Shown here one piece after another: positions 6,504 through 53,109 of a DNA stretch of 64,000 nucleotides. Both the position numbers and the translations under genes were made by a program. The stretch is from a phage. Where the stretch lies: sequence record PX667085.1, one strand, 5' to 3'. Below the pieces are notes generated by a model, which was given only the letters and a program-made list of their open reading frames with translations, did no database searches and had not been told where the DNA came from. The first letter of the stretch is position 1. Each line of letters starts with the position of its first letter.

Positions 6504-6520
6504 TTAACTCATTGTTTTAT

Positions 6521-6542: not shown

Positions 6543-6551
6543 GGAGGAGAT

Positions 6552-6910: not shown

Positions 6911-6920
6911 GGAGAAAACA

Positions 6921-7725: not shown

Positions 7726-7732
7726 TTAAAGC

Positions 7733-7762
7733 TTGACAATATTAAACATTTTATGATAGGAT
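7733..7762 (+). promoter_or_regulatory. putative promoter TTGACA-N18-TAGGAT
   Basis: TTGACA at 7733-7738; weak -10 candidates TATGAT/TAGGAT; precedes 7771 ORF. Confidence 0.35.
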
Positions 7763-7770
7763 AGCATTCA

Positions 7771-8163: not shown

Positions 8164-8179
8164 TGTAGAGGAGATAATA

Positions 8180-9067
8180 ATGTCCGTAATTAATACTGAA
8201 ACTGATCGTAAAGGCAAAACCGTAACTTATGCAACTGGTATCGTAGACTACGTTAAACTGGATAAATTCGCTGAACCTAAAACTTTTCATTGGGAAGGAA
8301 AAACGATTGTTTCAACTCACCGAGCTTCTCTTGTTCTGAAAGAGAAAGGTGCTAAACCAGATGAGAAAGGTGTTTGGATTTCTCTTGGTGACATTGAACT
8401 GAAAGAAGGTTATGAAAACCTGCAAGTCAAAGAAGGTGATAATTGGATCACTATTGAAAAAGGTGTAGAAGTAAGTATTGATATTGATCGCGTTGATAAT
8501 AAAGGCGGTAAAACTTACTACAATACTAAAAAATCTCGTATTACAGTATTGTCTACCGATGGTGTTCAGAAGTCTAACAAATCTTCTGGCAATAAAGGTT
8601 CCAACGATGCTGCTCCTAAGCAATCCTATAAAAAACGTGATACTGTAGGTCTGGAAACTGGTCACGCAGTAAATGGTGCACTGGAACTGATTCGTAATGG
8701 TGTTAAAGGCGATGCTTTCGATATCGCTGGGGTTGTTCAATCTGCAACTGTCACGCTGAAATCGGAAATTGCTGAATCTCGTGGCGTTGATATTAATGAT
8801 TATGATCTTGGGGCATCTGTTGGTCACGCTATTCTTAATGCTTGTAAAGACCATACCATTAAGACTGTATCTGTAGAAGATCTGATTGACTCTGCTCGTA
8901 AAGTTCTAGCTCTGTCTGATAAAGTTGCTGCTGCCATTCGTGGTTCCGCAGAACAACCTAAGAAAGAAGAGAAGAAAGAAGTTAAAAAGCCTGAACCACA
9001 ACCAGAACCAACTCCAAGCAATCAAGAAGAACCTCCAATGGACTTCGATGATGATATTCCATTCTGA
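8180..9067 (+). CDS. single-stranded DNA-binding protein (SSB-like)
   Basis: C-terminus PMDFDDDIPF matches the canonical acidic SSB tail; low-complexity linker PKKEEKKEVKKPEPQPEP before the tail; sits in replication block. Confidence 0.6.
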   Translation: MSVINTETDRKGKTVTYATGIVDYVKLDKFAEPKTFHWEGKTIVSTHRASLVLKEKGAKPDEKGVWISLGDIELKEGYENLQVKEGDNWITIEKGVEVSIDIDRVDNKGGKTYYNTKKSRITVLSTDGVQKSNKSSGNKGSNDAAPKQSYKKRDTVGLETGHAVNGALELIRNGVKGDAFDIAGVVQSATVTLKSEIAESRGVDINDYDLGASVGHAILNACKDHTIKTVSVEDLIDSARKVLALSDKVAAAIRGSAEQPKKEEKKEVKKPEPQPEPTPSNQEEPPMDFDDDIPF

Positions 9068-9101
9068 TCTTATTGATTTATAAAGAGTTTTTATAAAAGA
9101 A

Positions 9102-9130
9102 AAGGGAACCTTTGCGGGTTCCCTTTTTTA
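9102..9130. terminator. bidirectional terminator between convergent blocks
   Basis: GGGAACC-TTTGCG-GGTTCCC hairpin flanked by A/T tracts on both sides (AAAAGAAAA upstream, TTTTTTATT downstream). Confidence 0.6.
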
Positions 9131-11806
9131 TTAGTCGTAATATTTCAAACCTGTAATGAACTTCGATCCCCAATCCGCACTTGCGGCGGTGAACGTCAAC
9201 ATCCAAGTTGTAGCTGTACCAGTGAAGACCTCTCGTTGCACAGTACCATCAGTGTGGTAAATGTCCACGCCAGTATGTCCATTCTTAGGAATAGTGAAGG
9301 TAACAGCACTGGTAGTGTCTCGTGCATAAGAACAAACAAATGGTGTCCCCGCCCAAACTGGATTTGTCATATCACCCATCTCAAGCTGTGGAACCCAAGC
9401 AATAAGACCTGCCGTACCATCTCCTGCGAAAGTGTCTGATCCACTTGCATTCAAAGCTATAATCTCATAGGTTATAGATGCTTGTTTGGCAACTGTCACT
9501 TTGTGTAGAATTACACGATACCAACCGTTCCCCATATCGATTATGTTTGCATCTGCACCTGTAAATGTTCCAGCTACAAGATCATAAGTCCCTTCGTTAA
9601 TCTCATCTCCTGAAGTCAATTTGAGTTTCACTTTAGTGATCCCGTCTGGCTTCAAGAATACGGATGCCGCCCAGTGCTTACCTGCTGTAATATCAGAAGC
9701 TGTATTCACTGCTGATAAAATATGTTGTCCTGAAGTTGTAGAAGGTGTTAACTTGTAAGTGTTAGCCGTAGTTCCAACCGGAGAGTTGATTGTTGATGCT
9801 GTGACTGTCAAGTTCGTCTTCAACCACGGGGAAGCTGTTGTCAAGTTATTGTTGATAAAGATATGTGTACGGTTGGCTGCTACAACACGTCTACCTTGTG
9901 GAGTTGTACCAACATATTCTAAAGGTGCTACGGGAGCAGAACTCTCTGTAGGTACAAGGATATCTCCAGAAGCCCTGGCATAACGGTTACTCCTGTTGAC
10001 CTTTACATCCGCCGGAATAGTTTCTTGCGTCAAATCATAGTCCATCACAATGACCACAGCATTCACTGTGAGATAAGAACTATCTTCGGCAGTTACCACA
10101 CCTTGATAAGTTGCTCTACAACCGATACGACAACCTCCATCAGCAACCGCTGTAATAACGCCTGTAACGGGGTCAACTGTTGCTACCGTAGGGTCATTAG
10201 AGAAATACTCAACAACCATACCAGGTAAGCTTGCTGCTCCTGTTGGCGTTATTTCTGCTACCATTGTTTGTGTTGTTCCTACATCCATCGCAGATAAGCT
10301 AGGAGTGTAAACGCTCAATGTTGAAGCATATCCTCCAGAGGTATCTGATAAAGTTGTTCCTTCAGCGTTTAAGGCTGTCATACCTGCATCAAAACCACCT
10401 TCTGCATGGAAAGTCATTAAACCAGTAGATGATATTGTCATGTTTGCAGGGGCAGAAGAAGTGTATTTAATATTGAAAAGTTTACCTCCTTCTGGGCTAA
10501 CAGAATGTGTCAACTGTTTAGTTCCACCTACAATACAAATTCCTAAAGAATCTGTAGTTAAGCCAGTTGCCAGAATATCACCCGTAATCACGGAGCTTGC
10601 TATTGGTGTGAATTTATTATAGTTTAGACCACTATTGAACAGATACGAGGCTTTCCCATCTTTCCAAATACCGGAATAATACATATCCCCGTTATAAACG
10701 AAAAAGGTTCCTTGATAACCTAATTGGTTAGTAATATCCATATTCAGCGTATGAACGCTTGTGAGCTTGTTTATATCCCAGGAACCCACTCCTTCAGGTT
10801 TAACTGGTTTTCCCACTTGGAGTGGATCTCCGCTCGCAGAATCATACCCCAAACCTAAGTTTGCAGTGTAGTTCTTACCAATAGCCCACAAGGAATTGTT
10901 GATCCCAACGAAAAAAGAGTGGCGGTTTGGTGGAAATTTCCATGTTGAGAAACCTGCTGCAAAGGTATCCAGTTTAGTGTAGGTTGTTTCTGTATTAGAC
11001 CTGACATATAAGTAGTTTACCGTGCCCGTACCACCGGAGGTATCTCCTACAACTATTGTCTGGGAAACTGTATTGATGTAATCTTTGACATACACTGTTT
11101 CAGTAGCGGATATCGTGGCATTGACAAAAGCGGTTGTTGTGTTATTATTACCTGCTAAACCTTTACTAGCTCCACAAACACGCAAGGTTCCCACATTGTT
11201 GACATAAGAGCATTGGTTGTAACCTGCATCAAAAGCAACTGCTGAACTTGTTATCTGACGAGGAGTAGAAACTTCGTTAGTAGTGCTTGCACCTAAACTA
11301 CCTACTGTGTTTTGACCCGATCCATAAAGAACACCACTATTCATTAACCAGAGAGTATTGTTATACCCTCCTTTAACCTCTTTAAGATTGGCTAAAGAAA
11401 TAGTCCCTGTTATTACAGATGGAAAGCTGGTCCAAGTAGTTACACATGCATCCGTACCACCTGCTGCTATAGATCCTACCAACCCTGCTGTCAATCCTGA
11501 ATATTGCCATCCCCCACTGTTAGTTTTAATAACAAAACAACGATCTGCGGTAAACACATCCGCTACTACAGTAGAAGCTAAGTGGAAATTATTGAATCGT
11601 GCACTACGAGTTCCATCTGCAATCTCACCAAAGAGGTTTGCGCCTTGAGTAAACAATCTACCATCATTAAGCAAAATTGCCAAACTGCTGTTAGAATTAC
11701 CAGCGTTATCTGGGTAATCTAAAGTAATTACTTTTTTAACAATACCTGCTGGCAGAGGAACGACACCAGTGCTGGTCATAATAGTAAATATTGGAATTGG
11801 AAACAT
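9131..11806 (-). CDS. tail fibre / receptor-binding protein
   Basis: 891 aa, Gly/Thr/Ser/Asn-rich, last gene of minus-strand structural block; SD GGAGGG upstream. Confidence 0.5.
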   Translation of the reverse strand: MFPIPIFTIMTSTGVVPLPAGIVKKVITLDYPDNAGNSNSSLAILLNDGRLFTQGANLFGEIADGTRSARFNNFHLASTVVADVFTADRCFVIKTNSGGWQYSGLTAGLVGSIAAGGTDACVTTWTSFPSVITGTISLANLKEVKGGYNNTLWLMNSGVLYGSGQNTVGSLGASTTNEVSTPRQITSSAVAFDAGYNQCSYVNNVGTLRVCGASKGLAGNNNTTTAFVNATISATETVYVKDYINTVSQTIVVGDTSGGTGTVNYLYVRSNTETTYTKLDTFAAGFSTWKFPPNRHSFFVGINNSLWAIGKNYTANLGLGYDSASGDPLQVGKPVKPEGVGSWDINKLTSVHTLNMDITNQLGYQGTFFVYNGDMYYSGIWKDGKASYLFNSGLNYNKFTPIASSVITGDILATGLTTDSLGICIVGGTKQLTHSVSPEGGKLFNIKYTSSAPANMTISSTGLMTFHAEGGFDAGMTALNAEGTTLSDTSGGYASTLSVYTPSLSAMDVGTTQTMVAEITPTGAASLPGMVVEYFSNDPTVATVDPVTGVITAVADGGCRIGCRATYQGVVTAEDSSYLTVNAVVIVMDYDLTQETIPADVKVNRSNRYARASGDILVPTESSAPVAPLEYVGTTPQGRRVVAANRTHIFINNNLTTASPWLKTNLTVTASTINSPVGTTANTYKLTPSTTSGQHILSAVNTASDITAGKHWAASVFLKPDGITKVKLKLTSGDEINEGTYDLVAGTFTGADANIIDMGNGWYRVILHKVTVAKQASITYEIIALNASGSDTFAGDGTAGLIAWVPQLEMGDMTNPVWAGTPFVCSYARDTTSAVTFTIPKNGHTGVDIYHTDGTVQREVFTGTATTWMLTFTAASADWGSKFITGLKYYD

Positions 11807-11818
11807 TTAAACCCTCCA

Positions 11819-11846
11819 TAAAAAGAAAGCCCCTTTCGGGGCTTCT
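11819..11846 (-). terminator. terminator after collagen-like fibre gene
   Basis: minus-strand AAGCCCC-GAAA-GGGGCTT hairpin followed by TTCTTTTT. Confidence 0.5.
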
Positions 11847-11847
11847 G

Positions 11848-13872
11848 TTATCGTGTTACAACAACCATGTCCACGATATTACCCACACCAGGATACGTTA
11901 ATTGCAAAATTGTTACTGCGTTAGCAGTAGTTGCTATTTCTGTATCATTCAGTGCTCCATAAGACGCATCTAGTGTAACCGTGTGTCCCGTTGTATCTTG
12001 AATCAAATAAATCATTGCTGAAAATGCTTTAGGTTTTGTAGATCCAGTGACACCAGGCCATGCTCCAACTGTCAGAGCGTCAGTTACTGTAACAACATAC
12101 ATATTGGAAGTTCCAGAAGGAGTCCAAGATGCTCCAGAGTTGGCAGTAGTTGTTTCAAGTTCCATGAAACCTGCTGTAACTTTAGTTGGTGTTATAGCTT
12201 CTGTAGGATCTGATCCTGATATTTCGATCCAGTTCCCATCAGAACGACCATACGTCAAGCCGTCTTGAGGTGCTTCTGGTATACTAGGAAGAGTTCCTAT
12301 AAGTGTCCACGTAGAAGAATCTGTTTTCTTGAACACTGCTCCAGTGGTAGTATTGAAGGCGTAATCATTGATAACACCATCTCCTGCGACTGGATTAGTT
12401 GTTGCTACAAACCACTGTGCGCCGTCCTTACCGTTGGTCCCATCTGTACCGTTGGTTCCGTTTGTTCCAGGATCACCCTTATCTCCTTTATCCCCTTTTT
12501 CACCTTTGTCGCCTTTAATACTTCCCATGTCAACAAAAGATGCGGAATTGGTGTCTTGATCGTAGGTATAGATATAAAGATTACTAGTATCTTCAGTTAA
12601 GTAGGCATCACCATAGTTATTATAAACAGGGAGAGCTTCACTGTTCGGAACATGACCTTTAGCTGTAATTGATGTTCCTCCAAGACTGCCAACATTCATC
12701 CATTCTGTAGCATCTTGAACCCAAACATACAAATCATTATTAATTTTATATGCATCACCTACTTCTCCAGTAGGAGGAAGTTCAGCTTCACTGTTCAGAA
12801 CCCCGATAATCTCTAAGCCTGATCCTGTTGCACCCACTGGTCCTTGTGGACCTAGTTCACCTTGTGGACCTCGCTCTCCTTGATCACCCTTGTCTCCTTT
12901 TGGACCTTTAAGTGAGGCAATAAAATCTACTTCTGTCCCTTCATTACCAGCATCCAGCCAACTTTGATATGCAGATTTCCCTTCATCTCCATCTGTTCCA
13001 TCAAGACCGTCTTTACCTGCCTCACCTTGTGGACCTTGAGGACCAACAATATTACCCATGTTGACCCAAGCTGTCCCATTAGAGACATAAAGATTACCAT
13101 TGATAGAATAAGCTTGGCTTACGTTTTCAGAGTTAGGTTGTGGTAAGTTACTTGTAGAAGGTAAATCCCCACGATAATCAAAACCGTTGGCGTTAACACC
13201 AGGTGCTCCCTGTGGCCCTGTAGGACCAACATCACCTTTATCACCTTTTATAGAGGTAAGAAAGTCATAAACAGATCCTGTATTACCATCTGCCAACCAT
13301 ACCTCATAAGCTGATTTCCCTTCTGGTCCAAGAGAAGAAATAAGTTTCCAAACAGAACCATCCCAAGCATAGATTACATCGCCTACGATATAACCGTCCC
13401 CTGCAACGTTACCTGTAGATGGTAGCTCACTAGTGCTTGCTAATGATCCTTTAATATTAAGTTGAGCACCAGTATCTCCTTTCAAAGAAGCAAGCCATTG
13501 TGCTTCTGTTCCAACAAAACCATTATCAAGTGCGATCTGATAAGCTGATTTACCAGCTTCAGGTATTGTTTCCGACAGATCATCGATCTGTTGCTGCACT
13601 GCCGTAAACTTGGCATTGATAATTGCTATATCATCAGCGGTCCCAACATTTTGCCATGCAAGGGAAGAAATACCACCTGTGGTGGCTGGTGTAGAGTTTG
13701 CTGGAACTACTTTAGGAAAAGTTCCTTTCCATTGGTAATAATTCCCTTCTGCTGCTAACAGCAAAACTTCACGGGAATTACGTAATGTAAAACCTGCCTC
13801 AAAACTGCGACGTTTTCGATAAGTAGCTTCTACCAGATCGGCTATCGCACTATTAGGTCTTGTTAAATTCAT
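11848..13872 (-). CDS. tail fibre with collagen-like Gly-X-Y tracts and internal repeats
   Basis: GDKGDVGPTGPQGAPG, GPQGPQGEAGKDGLDGTDGDEGKSAY, GPKGDKGDQGERGPQGELGPQGPVGATG; repeated block GKSAY..W..G..G...DF..S.KG. Confidence 0.65.
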   Translation of the reverse strand: MNLTRPNSAIADLVEATYRKRRSFEAGFTLRNSREVLLLAAEGNYYQWKGTFPKVVPANSTPATTGGISSLAWQNVGTADDIAIINAKFTAVQQQIDDLSETIPEAGKSAYQIALDNGFVGTEAQWLASLKGDTGAQLNIKGSLASTSELPSTGNVAGDGYIVGDVIYAWDGSVWKLISSLGPEGKSAYEVWLADGNTGSVYDFLTSIKGDKGDVGPTGPQGAPGVNANGFDYRGDLPSTSNLPQPNSENVSQAYSINGNLYVSNGTAWVNMGNIVGPQGPQGEAGKDGLDGTDGDEGKSAYQSWLDAGNEGTEVDFIASLKGPKGDKGDQGERGPQGELGPQGPVGATGSGLEIIGVLNSEAELPPTGEVGDAYKINNDLYVWVQDATEWMNVGSLGGTSITAKGHVPNSEALPVYNNYGDAYLTEDTSNLYIYTYDQDTNSASFVDMGSIKGDKGEKGDKGDKGDPGTNGTNGTDGTNGKDGAQWFVATTNPVAGDGVINDYAFNTTTGAVFKKTDSSTWTLIGTLPSIPEAPQDGLTYGRSDGNWIEISGSDPTEAITPTKVTAGFMELETTTANSGASWTPSGTSNMYVVTVTDALTVGAWPGVTGSTKPKAFSAMIYLIQDTTGHTVTLDASYGALNDTEIATTANAVTILQLTYPGVGNIVDMVVVTR

Positions 13873-44532: not shown

Positions 44533-46608
44533 TTATCTTTTACGGACACTATACGGTTGGTGAAATCCGCTGTTCATTCTACTGTATCCTGTAGGAGCAT
44601 TTGTTGTTGTAGGGATAGCTACTGCCTTGAAAGTATTCTCTTTTGACAGAGTATTAAAACAAGAGGCAGCAGCATCGGGAATGTCATCTTTAATAGTGGC
44701 TGTAGATCTTTCACCATTGAAAGATTCCAATTCTTTATAAAAGTGGGTTAAAGTTTCCACATTAGGGAAAGAATCTTCAACAATATAAACAAAACCGTTT
44801 TGACACGCACTACTAAAAGGCATAAAACGCTGAAGCTTTTTCTTGTTGCCTGGCATAGCATCTGGTTTAACAACAAAACCTTCTAGAATAAGTTTCTTTG
44901 CAGACTCTGTGTATTCTATTGTCCCAGCACCAGATGGGTCTTTAGGAAGCACTACTGTAACTTCTGGTCCATCAATCTTACATTGATTTAGAATCAGGTT
45001 ATCCCTTTCCCCAGGTAGTCTTCGAAACCTTCCGAAAATTTTACTTTTCTCATCCACAGCATCATAATCATAGTCGCCAAAGATGTAGATATTACCATCT
45101 TGATCTTTACCCATTTTGACAGATGTTGTATAGTCTGGATAACGGTAAGTTTCTGTAGGAACTGAAACAGCTTTATCCCATGCTCGCATTAGTTTAAGAT
45201 TGTTAGGAACATCTTTATAAGATATTTTATGTAACCATTCACGTTGAAAGAAAGATTCTTTCTGGATACGTGCAAACCAACAACCGTCCAGAAGCTGTGC
45301 TCTTTTGATAGCTGTTTGTGATTTAAGTTGTGCTAAGTAATTAGGGTTAAGCCTAATGAGTTCTGGGTTATCAAATATTGTCCCACCAATAAATACGAAA
45401 GTTTGTGGTTCAATAACAACTGTCTCCCCTGTATTAGGGTTTTCCATGAAACAGTTTTCTGGATATTTTTCTTTCAGTTCTTCAGGTGTGTCAGCAAAAA
45501 CAGGTTCATCGTTAACAATGATGAAATATTTTTGTTTACCACACATATCTTCTCTAGGATAACCACCCTCATCAAGATAAGGTAACACCCAATTCAAAAC
45601 CCAACTATCTGCGTCAGGGTTACATGTGCACAACATGAAACTTGTTTCTGACTCTGAACGCATACGTCCCAGAAGATAGAGCATTTCATATTGTGTGAAG
45701 TGGGTTAACTCGTCAAAACCTACCATTGAATACTGTGTACCCTGATGGTTTGTTTCTGCTGTTACGTTATCATTTTCCAAATGGTCAAATTTGAGGGTTC
45801 CACCACCAGTGGCTTCAAAAATGATATCCATTGTACTTTCTTTTACGTGCGGTTGTAAAGGAAGATACAAACGTTTTGCTTCTGTAAACAGACCACCTGG
45901 TTTACGGTGAGCAGTGGTGTTCTTACGGAAAAGTATTCCACCAAACAAAGGGTCTTTGTAGGCGTATTTTAAAGCTTTCAGCAATAGCAGACGAGACTTG
46001 CCGCTATTCCCAGTAACGAAGCAGTGATCGCCACGTCTAAAGACAATATAGCTGCTTGGAGTCTCAAAACAATATTTCTTATCATCTGTTGAAATAACCT
46101 CGTGTATTTTTAAGTAAGTGCTCTTTTTACCAGGTATGTTAAAAGGAACACGTTTACCGAATGGATTTTCTACATAACCTTGCAGGGGTTTTCCTATTTG
46201 CTGTAATGCAATAAGATCTCCTACAAGAATCTCGAAATGTTTCTTTGATTTCTTTTTCTTATAGAATACAAAACGGTGTTCCATACTAAGTTCTTGGAAC
46301 AATCCTACACCATTTGTTATTCTGTATAGGTTATCTCCATTTAAATCATATTCTACAAAATAAGGTGTTACCAATTCTAAACGCTTATTCTTAGGATTGT
46401 ATTGGTAAATATCCTCTCCCGAATATTCACTAATCTGCCTCCAACCATCTTTTGTAAGATATTCCGTTTCAGCAGAAACACATCCAGCGGCACCACCATA
46501 AATCATAACTTCTGGCATTAAATCCATTGCAAGAGTCTGTTTACCTGGTTGAGCCTTTACCTCAATATCTACTCCAGCTAAACTACCTGCTGCCTTTTTC
46601 TTTGCCAC
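44533..46608 (-). CDS. terminase large subunit, interrupted by a mini-intein
   Basis: P-loop YGGAAG / SGKS split by 159 residues; Walker B MVGFDELTHF; 691 aa. Confidence 0.85.
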   Translation of the reverse strand: MAKKKAAGSLAGVDIEVKAQPGKQTLAMDLMPEVMIYGGAAGCVSAETEYLTKDGWRQISEYSGEDIYQYNPKNKRLELVTPYFVEYDLNGDNLYRITNGVGLFQELSMEHRFVFYKKKKSKKHFEILVGDLIALQQIGKPLQGYVENPFGKRVPFNIPGKKSTYLKIHEVISTDDKKYCFETPSSYIVFRRGDHCFVTGNSGKSRLLLLKALKYAYKDPLFGGILFRKNTTAHRKPGGLFTEAKRLYLPLQPHVKESTMDIIFEATGGGTLKFDHLENDNVTAETNHQGTQYSMVGFDELTHFTQYEMLYLLGRMRSESETSFMLCTCNPDADSWVLNWVLPYLDEGGYPREDMCGKQKYFIIVNDEPVFADTPEELKEKYPENCFMENPNTGETVVIEPQTFVFIGGTIFDNPELIRLNPNYLAQLKSQTAIKRAQLLDGCWFARIQKESFFQREWLHKISYKDVPNNLKLMRAWDKAVSVPTETYRYPDYTTSVKMGKDQDGNIYIFGDYDYDAVDEKSKIFGRFRRLPGERDNLILNQCKIDGPEVTVVLPKDPSGAGTIEYTESAKKLILEGFVVKPDAMPGNKKKLQRFMPFSSACQNGFVYIVEDSFPNVETLTHFYKELESFNGERSTATIKDDIPDAAASCFNTLSKENTFKAVAIPTTTNAPTGYSRMNSGFHQPYSVRKR
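46006..46482 (-). other. mini-intein (Hint domain, no homing endonuclease) in terminase Walker A
   Basis: insert begins CVSAETEYLTKDGW and ends FVTGN followed by S; removal restores GGAAGSGKS. Confidence 0.6.
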
Positions 46609-46617
46609 ATTCCCTCC

Positions 46618-46962
46618 TTATTCAGCAATAATACCTTTTTCTTGCAGTGTTTTAATATATGTTTGTAAACCTAAAACCTTTCGTCTATCTTGCTCCCAAA
46701 GAGCATTGTTTTGAGTTTGGTTGTTAACAACTTCAGATCTACTAACCCCTTTTGCAATTTGATTTTTAGTGTATGGCACAGGTGTCGATACTTTATCCAT
46801 CAAGTCCGAATCTGGACCTTTAACCTTTTCTATGGCTACAGCCTTACACTCATCAATAAGAACTGGGGAAACTTTTGTTGATGATGAACAACCCGTCATC
46901 ATTAGGGGCAAAGCAAGACATACTGCCAGAATTAGTTTTTGCATAATTCGTTGTATCCTCAT
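46618..46962 (-). CDS. outer-membrane lipoprotein, o-spanin-like
   Basis: signal peptide with lipobox-like LMMTGC; overlaps 3' end of upstream membrane protein gene. Confidence 0.45.
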   Translation of the reverse strand: MRIQRIMQKLILAVCLALPLMMTGCSSSTKVSPVLIDECKAVAIEKVKGPDSDLMDKVSTPVPYTKNQIAKGVSRSEVVNNQTQNNALWEQDRRKVLGLQTYIKTLQEKGIIAE

Positions 46963-47245
46963 TGATCGTTTGTTTCTTCTTCTCTAAATCTGCTTTTAAT
47001 TGTGCATTGTTTTTAGACAAGTTGTTTATTTGAGTATTTAATAATGCTCTTTCTTCGTCTGCTCTTTTTTGAAGAACATCAAAATCTTGTTTTGCTTTTG
47101 CTTGGGCTGCTTGATATACTTGCGTTTGATAGGCAACACCATCTTTGTAGCCAGACTCACGTATCTTGTTATAAGCAAACATTCCGGCAAGAATAAGAAC
47201 AACAATTAAAACAAAACTTAATACAGTTTTAGTCTTTAGATTCAT
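46853..47245 (-). CDS. i-spanin-like protein
   Basis: N-terminal TM TVLSFVLIVVLILAGMFAY then coiled coil; SD GAGGAAG; 3' end overlaps lipoprotein gene. Confidence 0.45.
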   Translation of the reverse strand: MNLKTKTVLSFVLIVVLILAGMFAYNKIRESGYKDGVAYQTQVYQAAQAKAKQDFDVLQKRADEERALLNTQINNLSKNNAQLKADLEKKKQTINEDTTNYAKTNSGSMSCFAPNDDGLFIINKSFPSSY

Positions 47246-47294
47246 TATCTTCTACTTCCTCATAAAATTTTATTTTAGGAAGAGAAGGGGCGTT

Positions 47295-47465
47295 GTTAAC
47301 TATCTTCTTCACTTCCATCGGTTGAGCCTCCGCTAGGATCTCTTCCCACGTCTTCTCTGTCATCATAAAGTTCTTCCTCCAAGTTCCAAGCCCGTGTGTA
47401 ATCATTCTTTTTATCTTTATGATAAGAAGAACGGTTAAAATCATTTTTAACTACAAAATTGCGCA
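47295..47465 (-). CDS. small acidic protein (56 aa, below track cutoff)
   Basis: ATG preceded by GAGGAGGATAAAAT and TTGCAA-N17-TAAGAT; product ends DPSGGSTDGSEEDS. Confidence 0.3.
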
Positions 47466-47520
47466 TATTTTATCCTCCTCATATCTGATCTTATCACAAA
47501 ATGATATACAATTGCAAGCA

Positions 47521-47558
47521 TTAAAAATAAAAAAGCCCCTAACCTTTCGGAGAGGGGT
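47521..47558 (-). terminator. rho-independent terminator
   Basis: minus-strand CCCCTCTCCGAAAGGTTAGGGG hairpin followed by CTTTTTTATTTTT. Confidence 0.6.
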
Positions 47559-47606
47559 GTTAAAAATAACAAGGAGGAGGGGCAAAGCCCCAAGAGAGGA
47601 GAGGGA

Positions 47607-47903
47607 TTAGATTACGATCTTTTTAGGAACGTCATCTGTATTCTGCACGGCAGGGGTTTCTTCTTCCATAGCTTCATAATGTTCTTCTAACCATTCTTCT
47701 ACTTGCTCTTTAATAGCTTTAGCTGCTTGGAAGCGGAGAGGTTTTGCTGCATCCTTATCATTAACAAGTTCAACAATATACCGCATAGCTTCTAAATAAT
47801 GCTCTGCAAATAATTCTTTTACACTTGCTTGCGCCGCATCCATTGCGTAAATCTGTTGCATTTCGGCTGTTGGTCTTCCACGACCACGTTTTAGTTTAGG
47901 CAT
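47607..47903 (-). CDS. hypothetical protein
   Basis: 98 aa; N-terminal basic MPKLKRGRGRP; first minus-strand gene after tRNA array. Confidence 0.4.
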   Translation of the reverse strand: MPKLKRGRGRPTAEMQQIYAMDAAQASVKELFAEHYLEAMRYIVELVNDKDAAKPLRFQAAKAIKEQVEEWLEEHYEAMEEETPAVQNTDDVPKKIVI

Positions 47904-47967
47904 AATAAAATCCTCCTAAACTTTATCTTAACATATAAAAAATAATAAGTCAAGTTTTATTCAATAG

Positions 47968-47995
47968 ATAGCAAAAAGCCTCCAATAAGGAGGCT
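47968..47995 (-). terminator. terminator at downstream end of tRNA array
   Basis: AGCCTCC-AATAA-GGAGGCT hairpin followed on minus strand by TTTTTGCTAT. Confidence 0.5.
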
Positions 47996-48110
47996 AATAA
48001 ATACTGTTAATTTGAAATGCTTTATTATAATTGTGCGTTAAGGAGTCGCACCCCTCCATCTTAGAAGGAACCAGGCAAGGTCTTCAAAGATACCGCTGGC
48101 AAGCGATATT

Positions 48111-48189
48111 TGGAGGCGGGAATTGGATTTGAACCAATGATCTCCAGCATATGAAACTGGCGAGGACGACCAGACTCCTCTATCCCGCT
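48111..48189 (-). tRNA. tRNA-Met (anticodon CAT)
   Basis: CCA encoded; T-arm ATTGG-ATTTGAA-CCAAT; anticodon loop TTCATAT; 11-nt D-loop; A1-C72 mismatch. Confidence 0.55.
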
Positions 48190-48195
48190 ATTAGG

Positions 48196-48265
48196 TATCC
48201 CGTGCTGGATTCGAACCAGCATCACAATAAGTTGTGGAACTCTTATCCTGTAAGTCTAACGGGAA
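48196..48265 (-). tRNA. tRNA-like element, possibly degenerate
   Basis: clean T-arm GCTGG-ATTCGAA-CCAGC and 6-bp acceptor, but only 70 nt, no CCA, anticodon arm would need a 10-nt loop. Confidence 0.3.
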
Positions 48266-48267
48266 AT

Positions 48268-48341
48268 TGGTTGTTTCGACAAGAATCGAACTTGTGTCTC
48301 ACGATTATCAGTCGTGGGTTCTACCATTGAACTACGAAACA
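48268..48341 (-). tRNA. tRNA-Ile (anticodon GAT)
   Basis: CCA encoded; 7-bp acceptor; T-arm; anticodon stem CACGA/TCGTG with loop CTGATAA. Confidence 0.7.
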
Positions 48342-48347
48342 TTAAAT

Positions 48348-48424
48348 TGGTCGGAATTGCAGGATTCGAACCTGCGACCCTACGCTCCCAAAGCGTATGC
48401 TCTACCAAACTGAGCTAAATTCCG
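48348..48424 (-). tRNA. tRNA-Pro (anticodon TGG)
   Basis: CCA encoded; 7-bp acceptor; T-arm GCAGG-ATTCGAA-CCTGC; anticodon loop TTTGGGA. Confidence 0.7.
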
Positions 48425-48429
48425 TTATA

Positions 48430-48505
48430 TGGCTGGTCTGTCTGGATTTGAACCAAACCTACGACAGTCAAAGTGTCGTGTGCTACCTGACTACACTACA
48501 AACCA
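48430..48505 (-). tRNA. tRNA-Gln (anticodon TTG)
   Basis: CCA encoded; acceptor with one G-U pair; anticodon stem CGACA/TGTCG with loop CTTTGAC. Confidence 0.6.
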
Positions 48506-48603
48506 ATAAATCATTTAATGAAGGGCAACCAGAAGAGGTGTGAGAGAAGGAGAAAACCATGAGTAAAAGAGAAAGTTTTCTGGCAACCCTTTATTAAATA
48601 ATT

Positions 48604-48677
48604 TGGAGCGTTCTACGAGGATCGAACTCGTGCCGCCGACTTGGAAGGACGGAATGCTACCGCTACACCAAGAACGC
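48604..48677 (-). tRNA. tRNA-Gly (anticodon TCC)
   Basis: CCA encoded; perfect acceptor and T-arm ACGAG-GATCGAA-CTCGT; anticodon loop CTTCCAA; one U-U mismatch in anticodon stem. Confidence 0.55.
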
Positions 48678-48688
48678 CCTACCTCTTT

Positions 48689-48718
48689 ACTATACTACAT
48701 TTTACTATTGGTTGTCAA
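48689..48718 (-). promoter_or_regulatory. tRNA-unit promoter 1 (AACTATTGACAA motif, -10 TATAGT)
   Basis: minus-strand TTGACA at plus 48713-48718, TATAGT 18 nt downstream; directly precedes tRNA-Gly. Confidence 0.45.
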
Positions 48719-48993
48719 TAGTTTTATTGAGTGGGACAGTGACGAGTATCCCATTGGGTGACTAGCCCTACGTTCGGTAAGCTAACTTAAAATAATACAA
48801 AACCAAAGTCAAATATTATTCTTCGTTGCTGTCGATGGGAGAGCCGCTTCTTCTTTTGCCCCATCCAACCCTACTCCGGTCAAGTTTCAGGTAACTCTTT
48901 TTGTGTGATCAACACAATACTAAGAACACTGTCTTTCGAACAGACCTTGTGCACAGGATACGACGATCAATCACAGTGCTCTTAATGTTGTGT

Positions 48994-49068
48994 TGGTGCT
49001 CCCACTCTGAATCGAACAGAGATCCACGGATTACAAAACCGTTGTAATAGCCATTATACTATAGGAGC
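48994..49068 (-). tRNA. tRNA-Thr (anticodon TGT)
   Basis: CCA encoded; T-arm CTCTG-AATCGAA-CAGAG; anticodon loop TTTGTAA. Confidence 0.6.
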
Positions 49069-49074
49069 AAAGCT

Positions 49075-49151
49075 GGGACTCGGCAGGATTCGATACCTGC
49101 AATTCCAGAAGCCTCTTGGCGACTGGGGGTTTACCTTAACTCTACAAGTCC
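49075..49151 (-). tRNA. tRNA-like element with atypical 8-nt T-loop, anticodon unresolved
   Basis: acceptor pairs (6 bp plus one G-U) and T-stem GCAGG/CCTGC present, but T-loop is TATCGAAT and no 5-7-5 anticodon arm found; no CCA. Confidence 0.3.
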
Positions 49152-49158
49152 ATAATTC

Positions 49159-49244
49159 TGGCGATGAGTATAGGATTTGAACCTATATCGTTCTTTCGAA
49201 CACGGATTAACAGTCCGCCGCTTAAACCATTCAGCCAACTCATC
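49159..49244 (-). tRNA. tRNA-Asn (anticodon GTT) with extended 15-nt variable arm
   Basis: CCA and G73; perfect acceptor; anticodon arm GCGGA-CTGTTAA-TCCGT; extra hairpin GTTC-GAAA-GAAC before T-arm; 86 nt. Confidence 0.5.
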
Positions 49245-49250
49245 TTAATT

Positions 49251-49338
49251 TGGTGGTGAGTGATGGAGTCGAACCACCCGAATCGCAATGATAACAGATT
49301 TACAGTCTGCCCCGCTACCCCTACGGAATTAACTCACC
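49251..49338 (-). tRNA. tRNA-Tyr (anticodon GTA), class II
   Basis: CCA, A73, perfect acceptor; anticodon arm CAGACTGTAAATCTG; long variable arm; 88 nt. Confidence 0.7.
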
Positions 49339-49468
49339 TAAATACTAATATTTAAATTCTTTTTAAAATAGCCAGTGTTCACACCACTAACTATGAGTTA
49401 TCGGTAAGATGGTGGAGGCCATCTGCCGAAAGTTTACTCTATTAAAGTAAGCTATATTAAAAAGAACT

Positions 49469-49554
49469 TGGCGGTAGATGTAGGACTCGAACCTACACGC
49501 CGTTTCCGACTACAGTTTAGCAAACTGTCGTGGCTACCATTTCACCAATCTACC
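49469..49554 (-). tRNA. tRNA-Ser (anticodon GCT), class II
   Basis: CCA, G73, perfect acceptor; anticodon stem ACAGT/ACTGT with loop TTGCTAA; long variable arm. Confidence 0.7.
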
Positions 49555-49558
49555 AATC

Positions 49559-49649
49559 TGGCGGAAGGAGGGAGAGTCGAACTCCCAAGGCTCTTTCAAG
49601 CTCGGCGGTTTTCAAGACCGTTTTCGTCGCCACGTCGATTTGCCCTTCC
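49559..49649 (-). tRNA. tRNA-Ser (anticodon TGA), class II
   Basis: CCA, G73; anticodon region CGGTCTTGAAAACCG; long variable arm; exact 5' boundary uncertain. Confidence 0.55.
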
Positions 49650-49657
49650 ATACTTAT

Positions 49658-49687
49658 AATCTAACATAAAATAATGTTAGTTGTCAA
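49658..49687 (-). promoter_or_regulatory. tRNA-unit promoter 2 (AACTATTGACAA motif)
   Basis: minus-strand TTGACA at plus 49682-49687, -10 candidate TAGATT; directly precedes tRNA-Ser(TGA). Confidence 0.4.
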
Positions 49688-49883
49688 TAGTTTTTTAAAA
49701 CATTTTACCATGAATGGTGACTCCACCAACCCCCGTTCTCAACGAACGGTGCTCTTCGAGCATTTATGTCTTCTAATATAACCGTGGCCTTTGTTTATAA
49801 TGTCTGACATACTTGCCTCATTCTCTGCCACCATGATCAGTAGTGGGTTCAAATCACTTGAGCTAATTCATGTTAAAATGTTC

Positions 49884-49958
49884 TGGTGTCTTTACAAGGA
49901 ATCGAACCTTGACTAAGAGTTTAGAAGACTCCTGTGCTATCCATTACACCATAAAGAC
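49884..49958 (-). tRNA. tRNA-Arg (anticodon TCT)
   Basis: CCA, perfect acceptor, T-arm CAAGG-AATCGAA-CCTTG; anticodon loop CTTCTAA. Confidence 0.7.
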
Positions 49959-49960
49959 GT

Positions 49961-50035
49961 TGGTGGCCCTGGCTGGTTTCGATCCAGCTACCTATCGGTT
50001 ATGAGCCGACAGCTCTCCCATTGAGCTACAGGGCC
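49961..50035 (-). tRNA. tRNA with anticodon CAT (Met or lysidine-type Ile)
   Basis: CCA, perfect acceptor; anticodon loop CTCATAA; T-loop reads ATCGAAA (A at position 54). Confidence 0.6.
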
Positions 50036-50244
50036 ATAAATGTGGTAACAGAGACGCTGACTATTGTAGAGAACCGCTACATTCTCTAAGACCAAGCCCA
50101 ACTTTCAGCGTAAAAGTTCTTGAGCCGAGATTATTCCTTTTCCTCTTTGGTAGCTAACCTCTGAAGAAGTAGTCTCTAACACTACCGCAGTGCAAGCCCA
50201 TCTTAACAAAAGTCAACGACCCTCTTACCACACTTGATGAACGT

Positions 50245-50274
50245 ATCCTAACATATGAAGGATACGTTTGTCAA
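50245..50274 (-). promoter_or_regulatory. tRNA-unit promoter 3 (AACTATTGACAA motif)
   Basis: minus-strand TTGACA at plus 50269-50274, -10 candidate TAGGAT; adjacent inverted repeat ACGTATCCT...AGGATACGT. Confidence 0.4.
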
Positions 50275-50281
50275 TAGTTAT

Positions 50282-50530
50282 TTAAGCATATTCTGCTACT
50301 TCTTCACTATCTTTCTTTTCCAGAAGAGCAACAACCAAAGCTTCTGCGTTAAAAGTATTAATTTCAAGATCCATCTCTCGCATCAGAGCCAAGAAATCAA
50401 TAACTTTAACATCTTTAGTGATTACAATAGAAGTTGTACCATTGTTTTCAGATGTGTATTTTTCTGGATGGAAAAGAAAAACTGCATTGCCGTTACCATC
50501 TTCAAACACGTGTTTTTCTAATAGAGACAT
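50282..50530 (-). CDS. hypothetical protein (start revised)
   Basis: internal ATG at 50528-50530 with SD AGGAGGAACA gives 82 aa MSLLEKHVFEDG...; track start at 50596 overlaps upstream gene. Confidence 0.4.
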   Translation of the reverse strand: MSLLEKHVFEDGNGNAVFLFHPEKYTSENNGTTSIVITKDVKVIDFLALMREMDLEINTFNAEALVVALLEKKDSEEVAEYA

Positions 50531-50538
50531 TGTTCCTC

Positions 50539-50790
50539 CTAATCTGTTAGTTGTTCGTCCTCTACCAAGTTTGACACGAGAACGTCTGTTATACATTGAT
50601 GCTGATAAACCCTTTCGGGACTATCATCAAAAGCCAAACCTGTGCAAATAGAACAGAGGTCTGATTCCTTGATGACTCCATTTTTATCACGTCTGGAGTG
50701 GTTTGTCAAATGCCTATTACAAGCACGGCACCTAAAATAAAAGCTATTTTGCATATATCCTTCGAACCCCAAATGGGGAGTGATCGGCAT
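50539..50790 (-). CDS. small zinc-finger protein
   Basis: 83 aa; CRAC...CSIC cysteine pairs. Confidence 0.4.
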   Translation of the reverse strand: MPITPHLGFEGYMQNSFYFRCRACNRHLTNHSRRDKNGVIKESDLCSICTGLAFDDSPERVYQHQCITDVLVSNLVEDEQLTD

Positions 50791-50827
50791 CTCCTCACTT
50801 CTAGTTTAGCACGAAGGATATCTTAAG

Positions 50828-51013
50828 TCAACTAGGAATAATTTTATCCTTTTTGGTTTCATAACCAGTCCAATCTAAATCCTCCCAGCCTTCATCATCG
50901 TCTAACACATTGTCATCATCATAAGATGCAATGTTATAAATAGAACGTGGATTACAAGACATACAATCTTTAATAGGCACATGATGCCATTTGCACGGAT
51001 TCTCGCTAATCAT
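50828..51013 (-). CDS. small Cys-containing acidic protein
   Basis: 61 aa; CKWHHVPIKDCMSC; acidic tail; first gene leftward of divergence region. Confidence 0.35.
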   Translation of the reverse strand: MISENPCKWHHVPIKDCMSCNPRSIYNIASYDDDNVLDDDEGWEDLDWTGYETKKDKIIPS

Positions 51014-51039
51014 TGCACACCTCCATTCTTGTTAAGATG

Positions 51040-51243
51040 TTCCGTACTGTACTTCATACTGATCTATAGATCAAGTATTATTTATAATAATTTATTATTT
51101 TATTTTTAATTGATAGAAGTTGATCTGTACGTACCAGTTCTGATACACTGTACCTGTTTGTTAGATCTAATAATTATTTATTATTAATATTTAATAATTA
51201 TTAATCTAGTACGGAGTACAGTACTTGAGTACAGAGTACTACA
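51040..51243. promoter_or_regulatory. palindrome- and GTAC-rich AT-rich divergence region (candidate operator array or origin)
   Basis: perfect palindromes TGATCTATAGATCA (51060-51073), GTACGTAC (51127-51134), TTAGATCTAA (51161-51170); five AGTAC in 51208-51243; A/T runs between. Confidence 0.4.
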
Positions 51244-51494
51244 TCAACAACCTAAAACCTTAACTCGCTGCGCTCGTTAATAGATTTCTAGGGTAGCATA
51301 CTTCGAACACAAAAGTCAAGAGTTTTATTAAAAATTATTTTCTGTGTGCAAAAACCTTGCTTAAACAGGTAGCAATAGTATAGCCTATAACATAAGCTTC
51401 ATAAGAGGCTCGTAGAGCAAGTTCACTTACTAGGTAAGGTGATTTATCATCTTATATATAAAAAGTGCGTCAGAGACGCGTTTAGGAGGTTAGA

Positions 51495-51818
51495 ATGAGA
51501 TTTACAAGACAAGAGGTAGTTGTGCTGGACGAAGCAATGACAATGATCGTCTTTTACTATGAGGATATCTTCTGTGCAGCATATCATTTAAATGACATTC
51601 AGATTGAATGGCAGCAGATAGCATTCCTGTTGGACAAGAGTAATCATTTGGATGGCTTTGAGTATTTGGAGTGGGATGGTGCAAAGGAAGTTAAAATTGT
51701 AGGGTTAAATCACGATCAGATTGTTGACATGCAATGTAAGTTGTGTCATTATCAGTTCTCAAACAAAGTCAAACTCGAAAGGCAATTGGAGGTGGTTAAA
51801 GATGATAGCACTAATTAG
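51495..51818 (+). CDS. hypothetical early protein
   Basis: 107 aa; SD TAGGAGG; first gene of plus-strand block. Confidence 0.45.
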   Translation: MRFTRQEVVVLDEAMTMIVFYYEDIFCAAYHLNDIQIEWQQIAFLLDKSNHLDGFEYLEWDGAKEVKIVGLNHDQIVDMQCKLCHYQFSNKVKLERQLEVVKDDSTN

Positions 51819-51914
51819 TGAGAATCCAGTCCTGACAACAATTGTTCTGATTTTTGCCATGTGTGTGGTTCACGATATTCTGGTAAGTTATTTTGACAAC
51901 AAAGGAGGTAAGAA

Positions 51915-52109
51915 ATGAAAGACGTTATTCAAATGGTATTCCGTGTAACTCTAGATGGTATACACGTTGTTAAAGGCACACAGAACTACACAGAAGCGAA
52001 AGAATACTTCTTAGAGTGGATTGATACACTGAAGACACAAGATGTGTCCTACAGCCGTGTTACGCTTACTGGCGACCATACCCCAATCATGGAGTACGTA
52101 AAGAAATGA
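51915..52109 (+). CDS. hypothetical protein
   Basis: 64 aa ORF, SD AAGGAGG. Confidence 0.4.
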   Translation: MKDVIQMVFRVTLDGIHVVKGTQNYTEAKEYFLEWIDTLKTQDVSYSRVTLTGDHTPIMEYVKK

Positions 52110-52345
52110 GCAACTATCCAATTACAGGCGTAACCTATTCTTGTGTAGCAAAAGGTGGTTTATATACAGTAGTGGAATTTCCAAAACCTGCCGGAATATC
52201 TAAAGTGTTTGATCCTGTGGTTATCTATGAAGATCTTAGAACAGGTCAACGTTACTGGAGATTTGTGAATGACTTTTTAGATCGTATGGAGGTAGTAAGT
52301 GGCGAAAACACCGAAGAAGTTATCAAAGCCAAAGAACGTTACTAA
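52106..52345 (+). CDS. hypothetical protein
   Basis: 79 aa ORF, start overlaps previous stop (ATGA). Confidence 0.4.
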   Translation: MSNYPITGVTYSCVAKGGLYTVVEFPKPAGISKVFDPVVIYEDLRTGQRYWRFVNDFLDRMEVVSGENTEEVIKAKERY

Positions 52346-52652
52346 GAAACCGAAAAACGAGGTTCTCAAAGTAGCTAAATCAGTTCCTAAGAAAGATAAA
52401 TTTGATACGGAGGCATTCGTCTTTGACACACCAATCGAGAAGATTGAAGAAGCGTTGCAACGTCTTGAGGAGCAGGAGGCAGATCCGATGGCTGAACCAC
52501 TCACGGCAGACCAAATTTATTGGTGGGGAATATGGACTTTGCAACTGCCAGAAGCAAAAAGAAGAGGAATGACTTCAGTTCCTACTTGTGCAAAAGAAGC
52601 GGCTGTGTTAGGTTTGTATGAGAAATCTAAAAAGAGGAGCAAAAAGAAATGA
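52299..52652 (+). CDS. lysine-rich basic protein (possible nucleic-acid binding)
   Basis: GTG start with SD GGAGG inside the 3' end of upstream gene; Lys-rich N- and C-termini. Confidence 0.4.
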   Translation: MAKTPKKLSKPKNVTKKPKNEVLKVAKSVPKKDKFDTEAFVFDTPIEKIEEALQRLEEQEADPMAEPLTADQIYWWGIWTLQLPEAKRRGMTSVPTCAKEAAVLGLYEKSKKRSKKK

Positions 52653-52930
52653 TCAAGACTTTTCTGAAGTGTGTAAAAGCAACAGATAATGAGTGGTACT
52701 CTGGATTATTCACTGCTGGCAAGAAATACGAGATCCTCAACGGGACAGGCAAGAAGTTTTCTCTCGTTGTAAACGATGAAGGCACGAAGCAAATGGTTTT
52801 TGCTGAAAGTTCTGTTTATGGTATTTTTGAAGTAGTGCAAGAAGGCTCTCCAATGATTCTGGAGTATCATGGCACTAATAAACCATATACTGCTATAGAT
52901 GTTATCAACAACAAGAGGAATGCAAAATGA
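52649..52930 (+). CDS. hypothetical protein
   Basis: 93 aa, coupled. Confidence 0.4.
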   Translation: MIKTFLKCVKATDNEWYSGLFTAGKKYEILNGTGKKFSLVVNDEGTKQMVFAESSVYGIFEVVQEGSPMILEYHGTNKPYTAIDVINNKRNAK

Positions 52931-53109
52931 TTTTACTCTATTCCGGTAAGGCAAAATACATGCAAGGTGTTAAACGTGTAGAGGTTACTAAGACAGTAAC
53001 AATCGGGAAATCTTTTATCGTTTATTATTTCCTTGTTAATGGGAAGGAGTATGCTGTAGCAAAGACCTTGGTTGATAAGGGTAAAACGTGGAAAGTGGAG
53101 GCACTATGA
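52927..53109 (+). CDS. hypothetical protein
   Basis: 60 aa, coupled. Confidence 0.3.
   Translation: MILLYSGKAKYMQGVKRVEVTKTVTIGKSFIVYYFLVNGKEYAVAKTLVDKGKTWKVEAL

Follow-up and report, generated by a model that had tools for sequence, protein, structure and literature searches.

The window analysed here is a 64 000-nt stretch of phage DNA from sequence record PX667085.1, with coordinates converted as record position - 46098 = window position. Positions 47500-51500 were matched over their full length to Escherichia phage Mt1B1_P17 at 99.7% identity, and by sequence the window belongs to Phapecoctavirus (Stephanstirmvirinae), a phAPEC8-like coliphage myovirus of approximately 150 kb. The host is E. 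coli, and σ70 rules were therefore used. A 151-kb genome was rebuilt by setting the window between Mt1B1_P17 1-46200 and 110000-151202.

Ten minus-strand tRNA genes were found with ARAGORN between 50035 and 48111. Rfam added tRNA-Tyr at 49338-49254 and a sub-threshold match to the tRNA clan at 49649-49563; ARAGORN made no call for this tRNA-Ser(UGA)-like sequence, and the record of phage ASO2A has a tRNA-Ser(TGA) assigned by tRNAscan. Conserved structured RNA elements lie between the tRNAs. When positions 45000-53000 were searched against Rfam at E ≤1, tRNA-clan matches and weak chance matches alone were returned, and the elements E1-E8 were unmatched; compared with one another, E1-E8 were found not to be paralogs. 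The element at the head of the array, E1, folds with a minimum free energy of -70.6 kcal/mol (z -4.3), and its end coincides exactly with the 5' end of tRNA-Met. Of the 76 pairs in the E1 consensus structure, 10 show compensatory changes, and a single divergent relative accounts for all of these. A specific mRNA target was sought for the anti-Shine-Dalgarno-like loop of E6, and only a generic resemblance to ribosome-binding sites was found.

The minus strand from 50280 to 48030 was scanned for terminators, and no site was found outside genes; three matches lay inside tRNA-Gln, tRNA-Met and a coding region. Downstream of the array, the sole terminator-like site outside tRNA genes follows the last tRNA and precedes the next gene. 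With no internal terminator-like site outside genes and one such site after the last tRNA, the array can be taken as a single operon that transcription would enter at three points, designated P1, P2 and P3 (table 1).

Table 1. Features of the tRNA array, in order along the minus strand (window coordinates).
Feature	Position	Strand	Details
P1 shared 12-mer AACTATTGACAA	50268..50279	-	-35 at 50274-50269; AACTA at -40..-36
Inverted repeat around P1 core (repeat I7)	50234..50274	-	arms TTGACAAACGTATCCT and AGGATACGTTCATCAA, 9-nt loop
P1 extended -10, TGT-TAGGAT	50245..50253	-	18-bp spacer
E1, structured non-tRNA RNA, 208 nt	50036..50243	-	predicted P1 start to tRNA-Met 5' end; ~30-bp closing stem
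First sub-operon, rest	49696..50035	-	tRNA-Met(CAU) 50035-49961, tRNA-Arg(UCU) 49958-49884, structured E2 49883-49696
P2 shared 12-mer	49681..49692	-	-35 at 49687-49682
P2 extended -10, TGT-TAGATT	49658..49666	-	18-bp spacer
Second sub-operon, first part	48994..49649 (both parts)	-	tRNA-Ser(UGA)-like 49649-49563, tRNA-Ser(GCU) 49554-49469, E3 49468-49339
Second sub-operon, second part		-	tRNA-Tyr 49338-49254, tRNA-Asn 49244-49159, tRNA-like E4 49158-49069, tRNA-Thr 49068-48994
E5, 264 nt	48993-48730	-	after second sub-operon
P3 shared 12-mer	48712..48723	-	-35 at 48718-48713
P3 -10, TATAGT	48689..48694	-	18-bp spacer, no TGn
Third sub-operon	48111..48677	-	tRNA-Gly, hairpin E6 (48603-48506), tRNA-Gln, tRNA-Pro, tRNA-Ile, tRNA-like E7 (48267-48190), tRNA-Met
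Terminator-like site	47977..47995	-	AGCCTCC-TTATT-GGAGGCT + TTTTGC; consensus scan

The repeated 12-mer and its predicted promoter elements

The plus-strand string TTGTCAATAGTT occurs as exact copies starting at 48712, 49681 and 50268, as the original prediction had it, and all three copies are on the minus strand in sense orientation, that of the tRNA array. With one mismatch or fewer allowed, the sole further match in the window is at 6494 (TTGTCACTAGTT); in 100 dinucleotide-preserving shuffles a mean of 0.76 matches was obtained at this threshold, and no shuffle reached four. The genome-wide motif search proposed with the original prediction was also run, and the rebuilt 151-kb genome holds no exact copies beyond these three. 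Similarity between the copies ends at ~15-18 nt, the spacers and flanks being unrelated (repeat family D5).

On the minus strand, each copy was read in the order A-tract, AACTA, TTGACA, 18-bp spacer and -10 hexamer. In the consensus scan the -35 hexamer matched TTGACA at six of six positions in P1, P2 and P3, with 10-11 of 12 matches overall, and a TAnnnT -10 within 16-18 bp of the -35 was present in all three, at 18 bp each, as proposed originally. Each copy had also been placed directly upstream of a tRNA. This is so at P2 and P3, where the end of the -10 is 8 nt from the 5' end of the tRNA-Ser(UGA)-like gene (49649) and 11 nt from that of tRNA-Gly (48677), respectively, but at P1 the 208-nt non-tRNA element E1 comes before tRNA-Met. 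The P1 12-mer begins 2 nt past the stop codon (50284-50282) of an 82-aa ORF. A TG at -15/-14 is found at P1 (50253-50252) and P2 (49666-49665) and is kept in orthologs; P3 has none.

UP-element criteria were taken from PMC4390567 and promoter-element definitions from PMC2988021. The former describe an A/T-rich stretch at -60..-38 with adenines around -43..-41. Adenine is present at -44, -42, -40 and -39 in all three promoters, and their A/T tract is UP-element-like in these terms. Upstream of the P2 -35 lies GTTTTAAAAAA, a T-tract followed by an A-tract, which is UP-element-like and conserved throughout the three clades. AT-rich sequence follows the -10 at these sites, with no GC-rich discriminator, unlike stringently controlled host stable-RNA promoters, in which the discriminator is GC-rich. 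The 18-bp spacer is suboptimal for σ70 and counts against the promoter reading, as does the ASO2A record, in which nine promoters are annotated genome-wide and none in the tRNA-array region. The MotA box has a TGCTT-type consensus, and no such box is present in the P1-P3 sequences. A T4-type MotA-dependent middle promoter was rejected, a perfect TTGACA occupying -35..-30 at all three sites; in T4 middle promoters a MotA box centred at -30 takes the place of the -35 element (PMC2988021). A candidate fourth promoter at 48812 (TTGACT-17-TAAGTT), which lacks AACTA and is missing from several relatives, was not counted.

Conservation across three clades

Promoter, start-site or RNA-seq data for Phapecoctavirus, phAPEC8 or Stephanstirmvirinae were not found in the searchable literature, and the promoter test was therefore made by comparison of three clades. 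Clade A comprised 10 genomes with 96-99.7% identity to the window. Its sister, clade B, comprised phiWec179, phiWec188, PsgM04F and one IMG/VR contig, and the third clade comprised Justusliebigvirus PD06 and alia with two metagenome contigs. When the upstream 82-aa ORF was used as anchor for a protein search of IMG/VR, one related contig only was retrieved, and the same single contig was retrieved with tRNA-Gly DNA as anchor; with the P2 -35 and -10 as anchor, metagenomes yielded three loci and no new lineage. E1 is 79.7% identical between clades A and B, which sets a baseline divergence of ~20% for the adjacent non-coding DNA.

With P1-P3 taken together, differences between the window and clade B amount to 0 of 18 positions in the -35 hexamers, 0 of 3 at -29, 2 of 15 in the A-tract (-45..-41), 4 of 15 in the extension and 12 of 39 in the spacers. 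Against Justusliebigvirus, the corresponding sums are 0 of 18 for the -35 and 25 of 39 for the spacers. The -35 hexamer and the A at -29 are thus unchanged over three clades with spacers that are 31-64% diverged. The -10 elements are retained as well: P2 TGTTAGATT is invariant in all three clades, the P1 -10 is kept in clade B as TGTTAAGAT with a 17-bp spacer, and at P3 all clade A and clade B sequences in the comparison have TATAGT, even the divergent nepoznato-type P3 allele; in Justusliebigvirus this -10 reads TGT-TAGAGT. P2 and P3 keep the 18-bp spacer in all clades. The distance from the P3 -10 to tRNA-Gly is 11 nt in all three clades, and that from the P2 -10 to its tRNA is 8 nt in clade B too and 15 nt in Justusliebigvirus.

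Conserved boxes with free spacers form the footprint expected of σ70 promoters, a reading well supported by these alignments and hard to square with a purely RNA-level signal. P1-P3 are probably ordinary σ70 promoters of the E. coli type. Each carries an A-tract, P1 and P2 also have a TGn-extended -10, and transcription would start at each of them.

The AACTA extension and alternative readings

In the original prediction, AACTA marked a distinct class of promoter for tRNA expression. For comparison, 42 other credible σ70-like promoters in the genome were used, 21 in the early-gene region and 21 elsewhere. Most of them carry the A-tract at -45..-39, where A occupies 50-80% of sites at all positions but -41, and positions -38..-36 are unconserved. 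AACTA at -40..-36 was found in three of three tRNA-array promoters and in none of the 42 others, and the other TTGACA promoters named at the outset (2609, 7733, 44529-44524 and 62863) do lack it, as had been noted. Under the position frequencies of the other promoters, three identical 5-mers would arise by chance with a probability of ~3e-5. The trio is a real sequence subgroup in this genome, of which only CTA and the A at -29 are distinctive.

On this prediction AACTA, or AAAACTA, directly before the -35 would be a functional sub-element, either an extended -35 or a special proximal UP subsite, of a separately tuned tRNA-operon class. Besides its exclusiveness to the array, this is favoured by the invariance of AACTA at all three sites in 10 of 10 clade A genomes, including a P3 allele with both flanks diverged. 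In Justusliebigvirus two promoters within or beside the tRNA array carry the string, set 1 bp farther from the -35 (AAAAACTAg/cTTGACAA). One, AAAAACTAgTTGACAA, precedes the 82-aa ORF homolog at the array head, and the other, AAAAACTAcTTGACAA, is the P2 ortholog; the string is probably ancestral to all three promoters. Parsimony would give the subfamily ancestor AAAACTA at P1, P2 and P3; it survives in six of nine promoter-lineage combinations despite randomised spacers, and with such an ancestry some constraint on the string is possible.

Against a functional AACTA, the clade B extensions read AAGTA at P1, AGGTG at P2 and AACTA at P3, and the Justusliebigvirus P3 ortholog has GCCTC in its place, with -35 and -10 intact and the promoter retained in each case. 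The 1-bp offset in Justusliebigvirus would be poorly tolerated by a base-specific contact. Between clades A and B, the extension also changes at a rate close to that of the spacer in the sums given above, and since orthologs remain intact after its replacement, loss of AACTA does not appear to remove the promoter. The tRNA region of the rV5-like phage A7_1 contains no AACTATTGACA, and a scan of IMG/VR for AACTATTGACAA-N14-TGTTAG returned 11 matches on unrelated contigs, none of them at a tRNA array. A separately tuned class is on this balance unlikely. What stood of the prediction is the promoter-like build of the three sites and the exclusiveness of AACTA within this genome; as a hallmark of a special tRNA promoter class it is not supported beyond clade A, and AACTA is better described from these comparisons as a clade-specific flank. 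CTA (-38..-36) probably goes back to an ancestral promoter module, and its constraint appears at most weak. A weak, position-tolerant contribution of AACTA, for example as part of a flank bound by the alpha-subunit C-terminal domain, is conceivable at low probability.

P1 is further distinguished by an inverted repeat with arms of 16 nt each (50274-50259 and 50249-50234). Folded as RNA, it gives a hairpin of -18.5 kcal/mol (z -4.3), of which clade B retains 16 of 16 pairs, with one compensatory pair by tool count. By eye, a second compensatory pair was seen in clade B (AACG...CGTT to AGCG...CGCT). The left arm is upstream of the predicted P1 start, so that formation of the hairpin would need read-through RNA from the upstream ORFs or single-stranded DNA. 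P3 has a weak inverted repeat, ACTATTG-N5-CAATAGT, across the -35 (hairpin z 0.17, not significant), and the P2 hairpin is likewise not significant (z -1.1).

In a second alternative, the identical 12-15 nt derive from duplication or short-patch exchange of cassettes of the PeSL (promoter-early stem-loop) type, not from selection on AACTA, and the cassettes serve as attenuators and as junctions for recombination. The layout of P1 is that of a PeSL, with a stop codon in AT-rich DNA before a σ70-like promoter and a predicted stem-loop over the -35/-10. Parts of other promoters are paralogous: the 48812 site (D11) is similar to P2 in spacer and -10, and a promoter at 47953 (D10) to P1 in its -10. 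In the nepoznato-type allele the P3 core is a conserved island with replaced flanks. The early region of the genome (Mt1B1_P17 1-12.7 kb, outside the window) contains ~20 promoters of this build, with an A-tract, TTGACA, a 16-17-bp spacer, TAAGAT, gtatcacaTAGGGCGGC and a hairpin. Yet P2 and P3 follow RNA elements, and only P1 has the upstream stop codon; their hairpins are not conserved, and were rejected as PeSL-like stem-loops, being not significant and, at P2, disrupted in their pairing by clade A spacer variants. Downstream, no Shine-Dalgarno sequence with an ORF start was found at the three promoters, and the RNA genes E1, tRNA-Ser and tRNA-Gly follow instead. No recombination junction was seen exactly at the motif. 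Cassette shuffling is accordingly rated as quite unlikely.

A more far-reaching proposal would make AAAACTA 0-1 bp upstream of TTGACAA an ancient upstream promoter element, as old as the Stephanstirmvirinae ancestor, that sets apart an RNA regulon under its own regulation, made up of the tRNAs and at least E1, E2, E3 and E6. Recognition of the element would fall to the alpha-subunit C-terminal domain, in one given register, or to a putative phage factor, and the conserved P1 hairpin would be an attenuator-promoter uncoupling the regulon from upstream early genes. We regard this proposal as speculative and its truth as decidedly doubtful.

It is very improbable that the 12-mer or its surrounding inverted repeats form an operator through which a phage or host regulator switches the tRNA operon. 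The P1 core palindrome with its 16-bp arms and the P3 repeat would suit such a site, but compensatory changes in the P1 arms with no fixed half-site point to a nucleic-acid hairpin and not to a protein site. No palindrome is common to the three sites, and the small neighbouring proteins, of unassigned function in PHROGs and Pfam, belong to no recognisable DNA-binding family and offered no regulator candidate. Equally hard to credit is a motif without promoter function that acts in the RNA precursor alone, perhaps as a nuclease or processing site in single-stranded AU-rich RNA: P2 and P3 do lie inside a region that P1 would transcribe, in AU-rich single-stranded linkers after long closing stems, but the conserved blocks are exact σ70 -35/-10 elements at 18 bp with free spacers, P1 is outside the RNA operon directly after a protein gene, and the distance from the P3 -10 to its tRNA is constant in three clades.

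Proposed transcription of the array and comparison with known systems

The three copies are probably the upstream half of three tandem host σ70 promoters that feed the tRNA operon, with AACTA non-essential. Host σ70 holoenzyme would bind each promoter through a UP-like A/T tract at ~-50..-39, TTGACA+A, the 18-bp spacer and either TGn with a moderate -10 (P1, P2) or a near-consensus -10 (P3). The alpha-subunit C-terminal domain is known to bind in the A-tract region upstream of the -35 and would act there on the A-tract, to which the AA of AACTA belongs. P1-P3 would feed one 2.3-kb non-coding minus-strand operon (50243-48111), with the transcript ending at the terminator-like site at 47995-47977. 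From P1, the E1 leader, tRNA-Met, tRNA-Arg and E2 would be transcribed; re-initiation would occur at P2, 2-4 nt before the tRNA-Ser(UGA)-like gene, and at P3, ~4-5 nt before tRNA-Gly. These restarts would make the distal tRNAs independent of read-through over long structured spacers. RNase P cleavage at the tRNA 5' ends would then free the short leaders and E1.

If confirmed, this arrangement gives an operon map for the tRNA cluster, with three promoter-defined sub-operons and one terminator, in a genus that is common in therapy collections, and unmodified host polymerase would itself drive the supply of tRNAs. For annotation, it makes a case against a special promoter class built on a 5-base flank that is lost in sister clades. 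The larger question at the locus is the role of the conserved structured RNAs between the tRNAs, in particular E1, the first to be transcribed from P1.

As in E. coli stable-RNA promoters of the rrnB P1 type, an A/T tract upstream of the -35 would drive RNA genes here. The rrnB P1 spacer is 16 bp, against 18 bp in P1-P3; the promoters here also have no GC-rich discriminator, and their A-tract is ~2 bp nearer the -35 than in the selected consensus. In E. coli, UP-type A/T tracts with adenines at ~-43..-41 are carried by about one-third of stable-RNA promoters (PMC4390567). The T4 tRNA cluster also contains small stable non-tRNA RNAs (rnaC and rnaD) beside its tRNAs, which is a precedent for E1-E8, although the non-tRNA elements here are larger and more numerous. 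No sequence similarity of E1-E8 to rnaC or rnaD was found beyond an 11-nt T-arm-like word.

The PeSL of RB49/phi1-type phages resemble P1 in their stop codon in an AT-rich stretch, strong σ70-like promoter and stable stem-loop, predicted at P1, over the -35/-10, and resemble the locus in being repeated promoter modules in a plastic region; their stem-loops attenuate upstream transcription (PMC2839356). They differ in that tRNA and structured-RNA genes are downstream here and a significant hairpin is present at P1 only, and the phage family is another one (Stephanstirmvirinae). A related phage is rV5, a large myovirus which, like the phage studied here, has no RNA polymerase of its own and carries tens of E. 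coli-type promoters. In rV5, 33 σ70 promoters were predicted, 11 of them with an extended -10, and these are bioinformatic predictions as well (PMC3606486).

T4 early promoters are likewise read by host σ70 in a virulent coliphage and combine an A/T-rich tract, -35, TGn and -10 with extra conserved positions that are phage-specific (PMC2988021). The promoters here differ in their TTGACA, 18-bp spacer and TA(A/G)GAT-type -10, and in that the extra string AACTA is found at only three promoters, in a single clade. As the flavour of the early-region promoters differs from that of P1-P3, the genome appears to hold several promoter subfamilies on one σ70 theme, which resemble T4 early promoters as described and those of rV5 as predicted.

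Structured and tRNA-like elements of the array

Four elements that are not tRNAs (E1, E2, E3 and E6) lie among the tRNAs of the array; all are conserved and strongly structured, and each has a long closing stem adjoining a tRNA or a promoter. Compensatory changes were counted by tools in E1 and E2, and were also seen by eye in E3 and E6 in comparison with Justusliebigvirus, the third clade. None of the four matched an Rfam family or T4 rnaC/rnaD. The E6 stem covaried between genera, as judged by eye, and its conserved loop, CUUUCUCUUUUACUCAUGGUUUUCUCCUUC, is perfectly complementary, in antisense orientation, to a consensus Shine-Dalgarno sequence with its AUG (GAAGGAGAAAACCAUGAG); no specific mRNA target of the loop was found in the genome. 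On the plus strand opposite the loop, a reading at 48546 would begin a 12-aa ORF, MSKRESFLATLY.

The tRNA-like units E4 and E7 are aberrant in the D or anticodon region and were called by neither ARAGORN nor Rfam; a near-identical counterpart of E4 is present in Justusliebigvirus PD06 (locus L003, 2985-3070). ARAGORN likewise did not call the tRNA-Ser(UGA)-like gene, the D-arm of which is unusual. In most phages of the sister clade, clade B, this position is occupied by a canonical tRNA-Ser(UGA) allele, and two very different alleles thus stand behind one conserved promoter.

Coordinates of elements in and near the tRNA array
Feature	Position	Strand	Description
A/T palindromic tract	51168-51205		~38 nt, pure A/T
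P1 inverted repeat	50234-50274		arms 16 bp
E1	50036-50243	(-)	structured non-tRNA element, z -4.3
E2	49696-49883	(-)	structured non-tRNA element, z -4.1
tRNA-Ser(UGA)-like gene	49563-49649	(-)	after P2, a predicted sigma70 promoter
E3	49339-49468	(-)	structured non-tRNA element, z -4.1
E4	49069-49158	(-)	tRNA-like unit; acceptor stem and T-arm
Candidate promoter	48795-48812	(-)	TTGACT-17-TAAGTT; paralogous to P2 in its spacer and -10 region (repeat family D11)
E6	48506-48603	(-)	structured non-tRNA element, z -5.7
E7	48190-48267	(-)	tRNA-like unit; acceptor stem and T-arm

Insertions and host labels among relatives

Inter-tRNA spacers of the relatives are insertion hot spots (loci L012, 3061-3579; L016, 2938-3279; L004, 5295-5430). 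An HNH endonuclease is inserted in a spacer of nepoznato and an XRE/HigA-like gene in one of ZCKP1; in clade B a small ORF replaces tRNA-Asn.

Some of the arrays 97-99% identical to that of the window belong to records with the names Campylobacter phage B15 and Acinetobacter phage ABPW7 (matches H138, H148 and H190, which include PsgM04F). Pseudomonas phage PsgM04F carries a clade B array, with E1 79% identical. The host labels Campylobacter, Acinetobacter and Pseudomonas look doubtful, the phages being Phapecoctavirus coliphages.

Promoter-associated repeats and cassettes

Within 51030-51340, the leader downstream of the promoter at 51319 contains the A/T palindromic tract, with GATC sites and GTAC-rich direct repeats on its flanks. 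A repeat_region is annotated at this leader in the nepoznato record, and the region may function as an origin or as a regulatory array. The candidate promoter of the table is without AACTA, the flank directly upstream of the -35 at P1-P3, and has no counterpart in iGC_PHA_EC001, SF1-1 or clade B.

About 20 near-identical promoter cassettes were located on the minus strand at 1-12700 of the Mt1B1_P17 record (locus L005, outside the window), each upstream of a small ORF and ordered as A-tract, TTGACA, N16-17, TAAGAT and gtatcacaTAGGGCGGC-loop-GCCGC. They share the word TAGGGCG with P3, where it directly precedes tRNA-Gly. The core of P1 is surrounded by an inverted repeat, the pairing of which is retained in the sister clade through a compensatory change. 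The Mt1B1_P17 cassettes make up a family of early promoters like the promoter-early stem-loop (PeSL) cassettes, here in a non-T4 phage, and the arrangement of promoter and inverted repeat at P1 is also PeSL-like, with a putative attenuator role.
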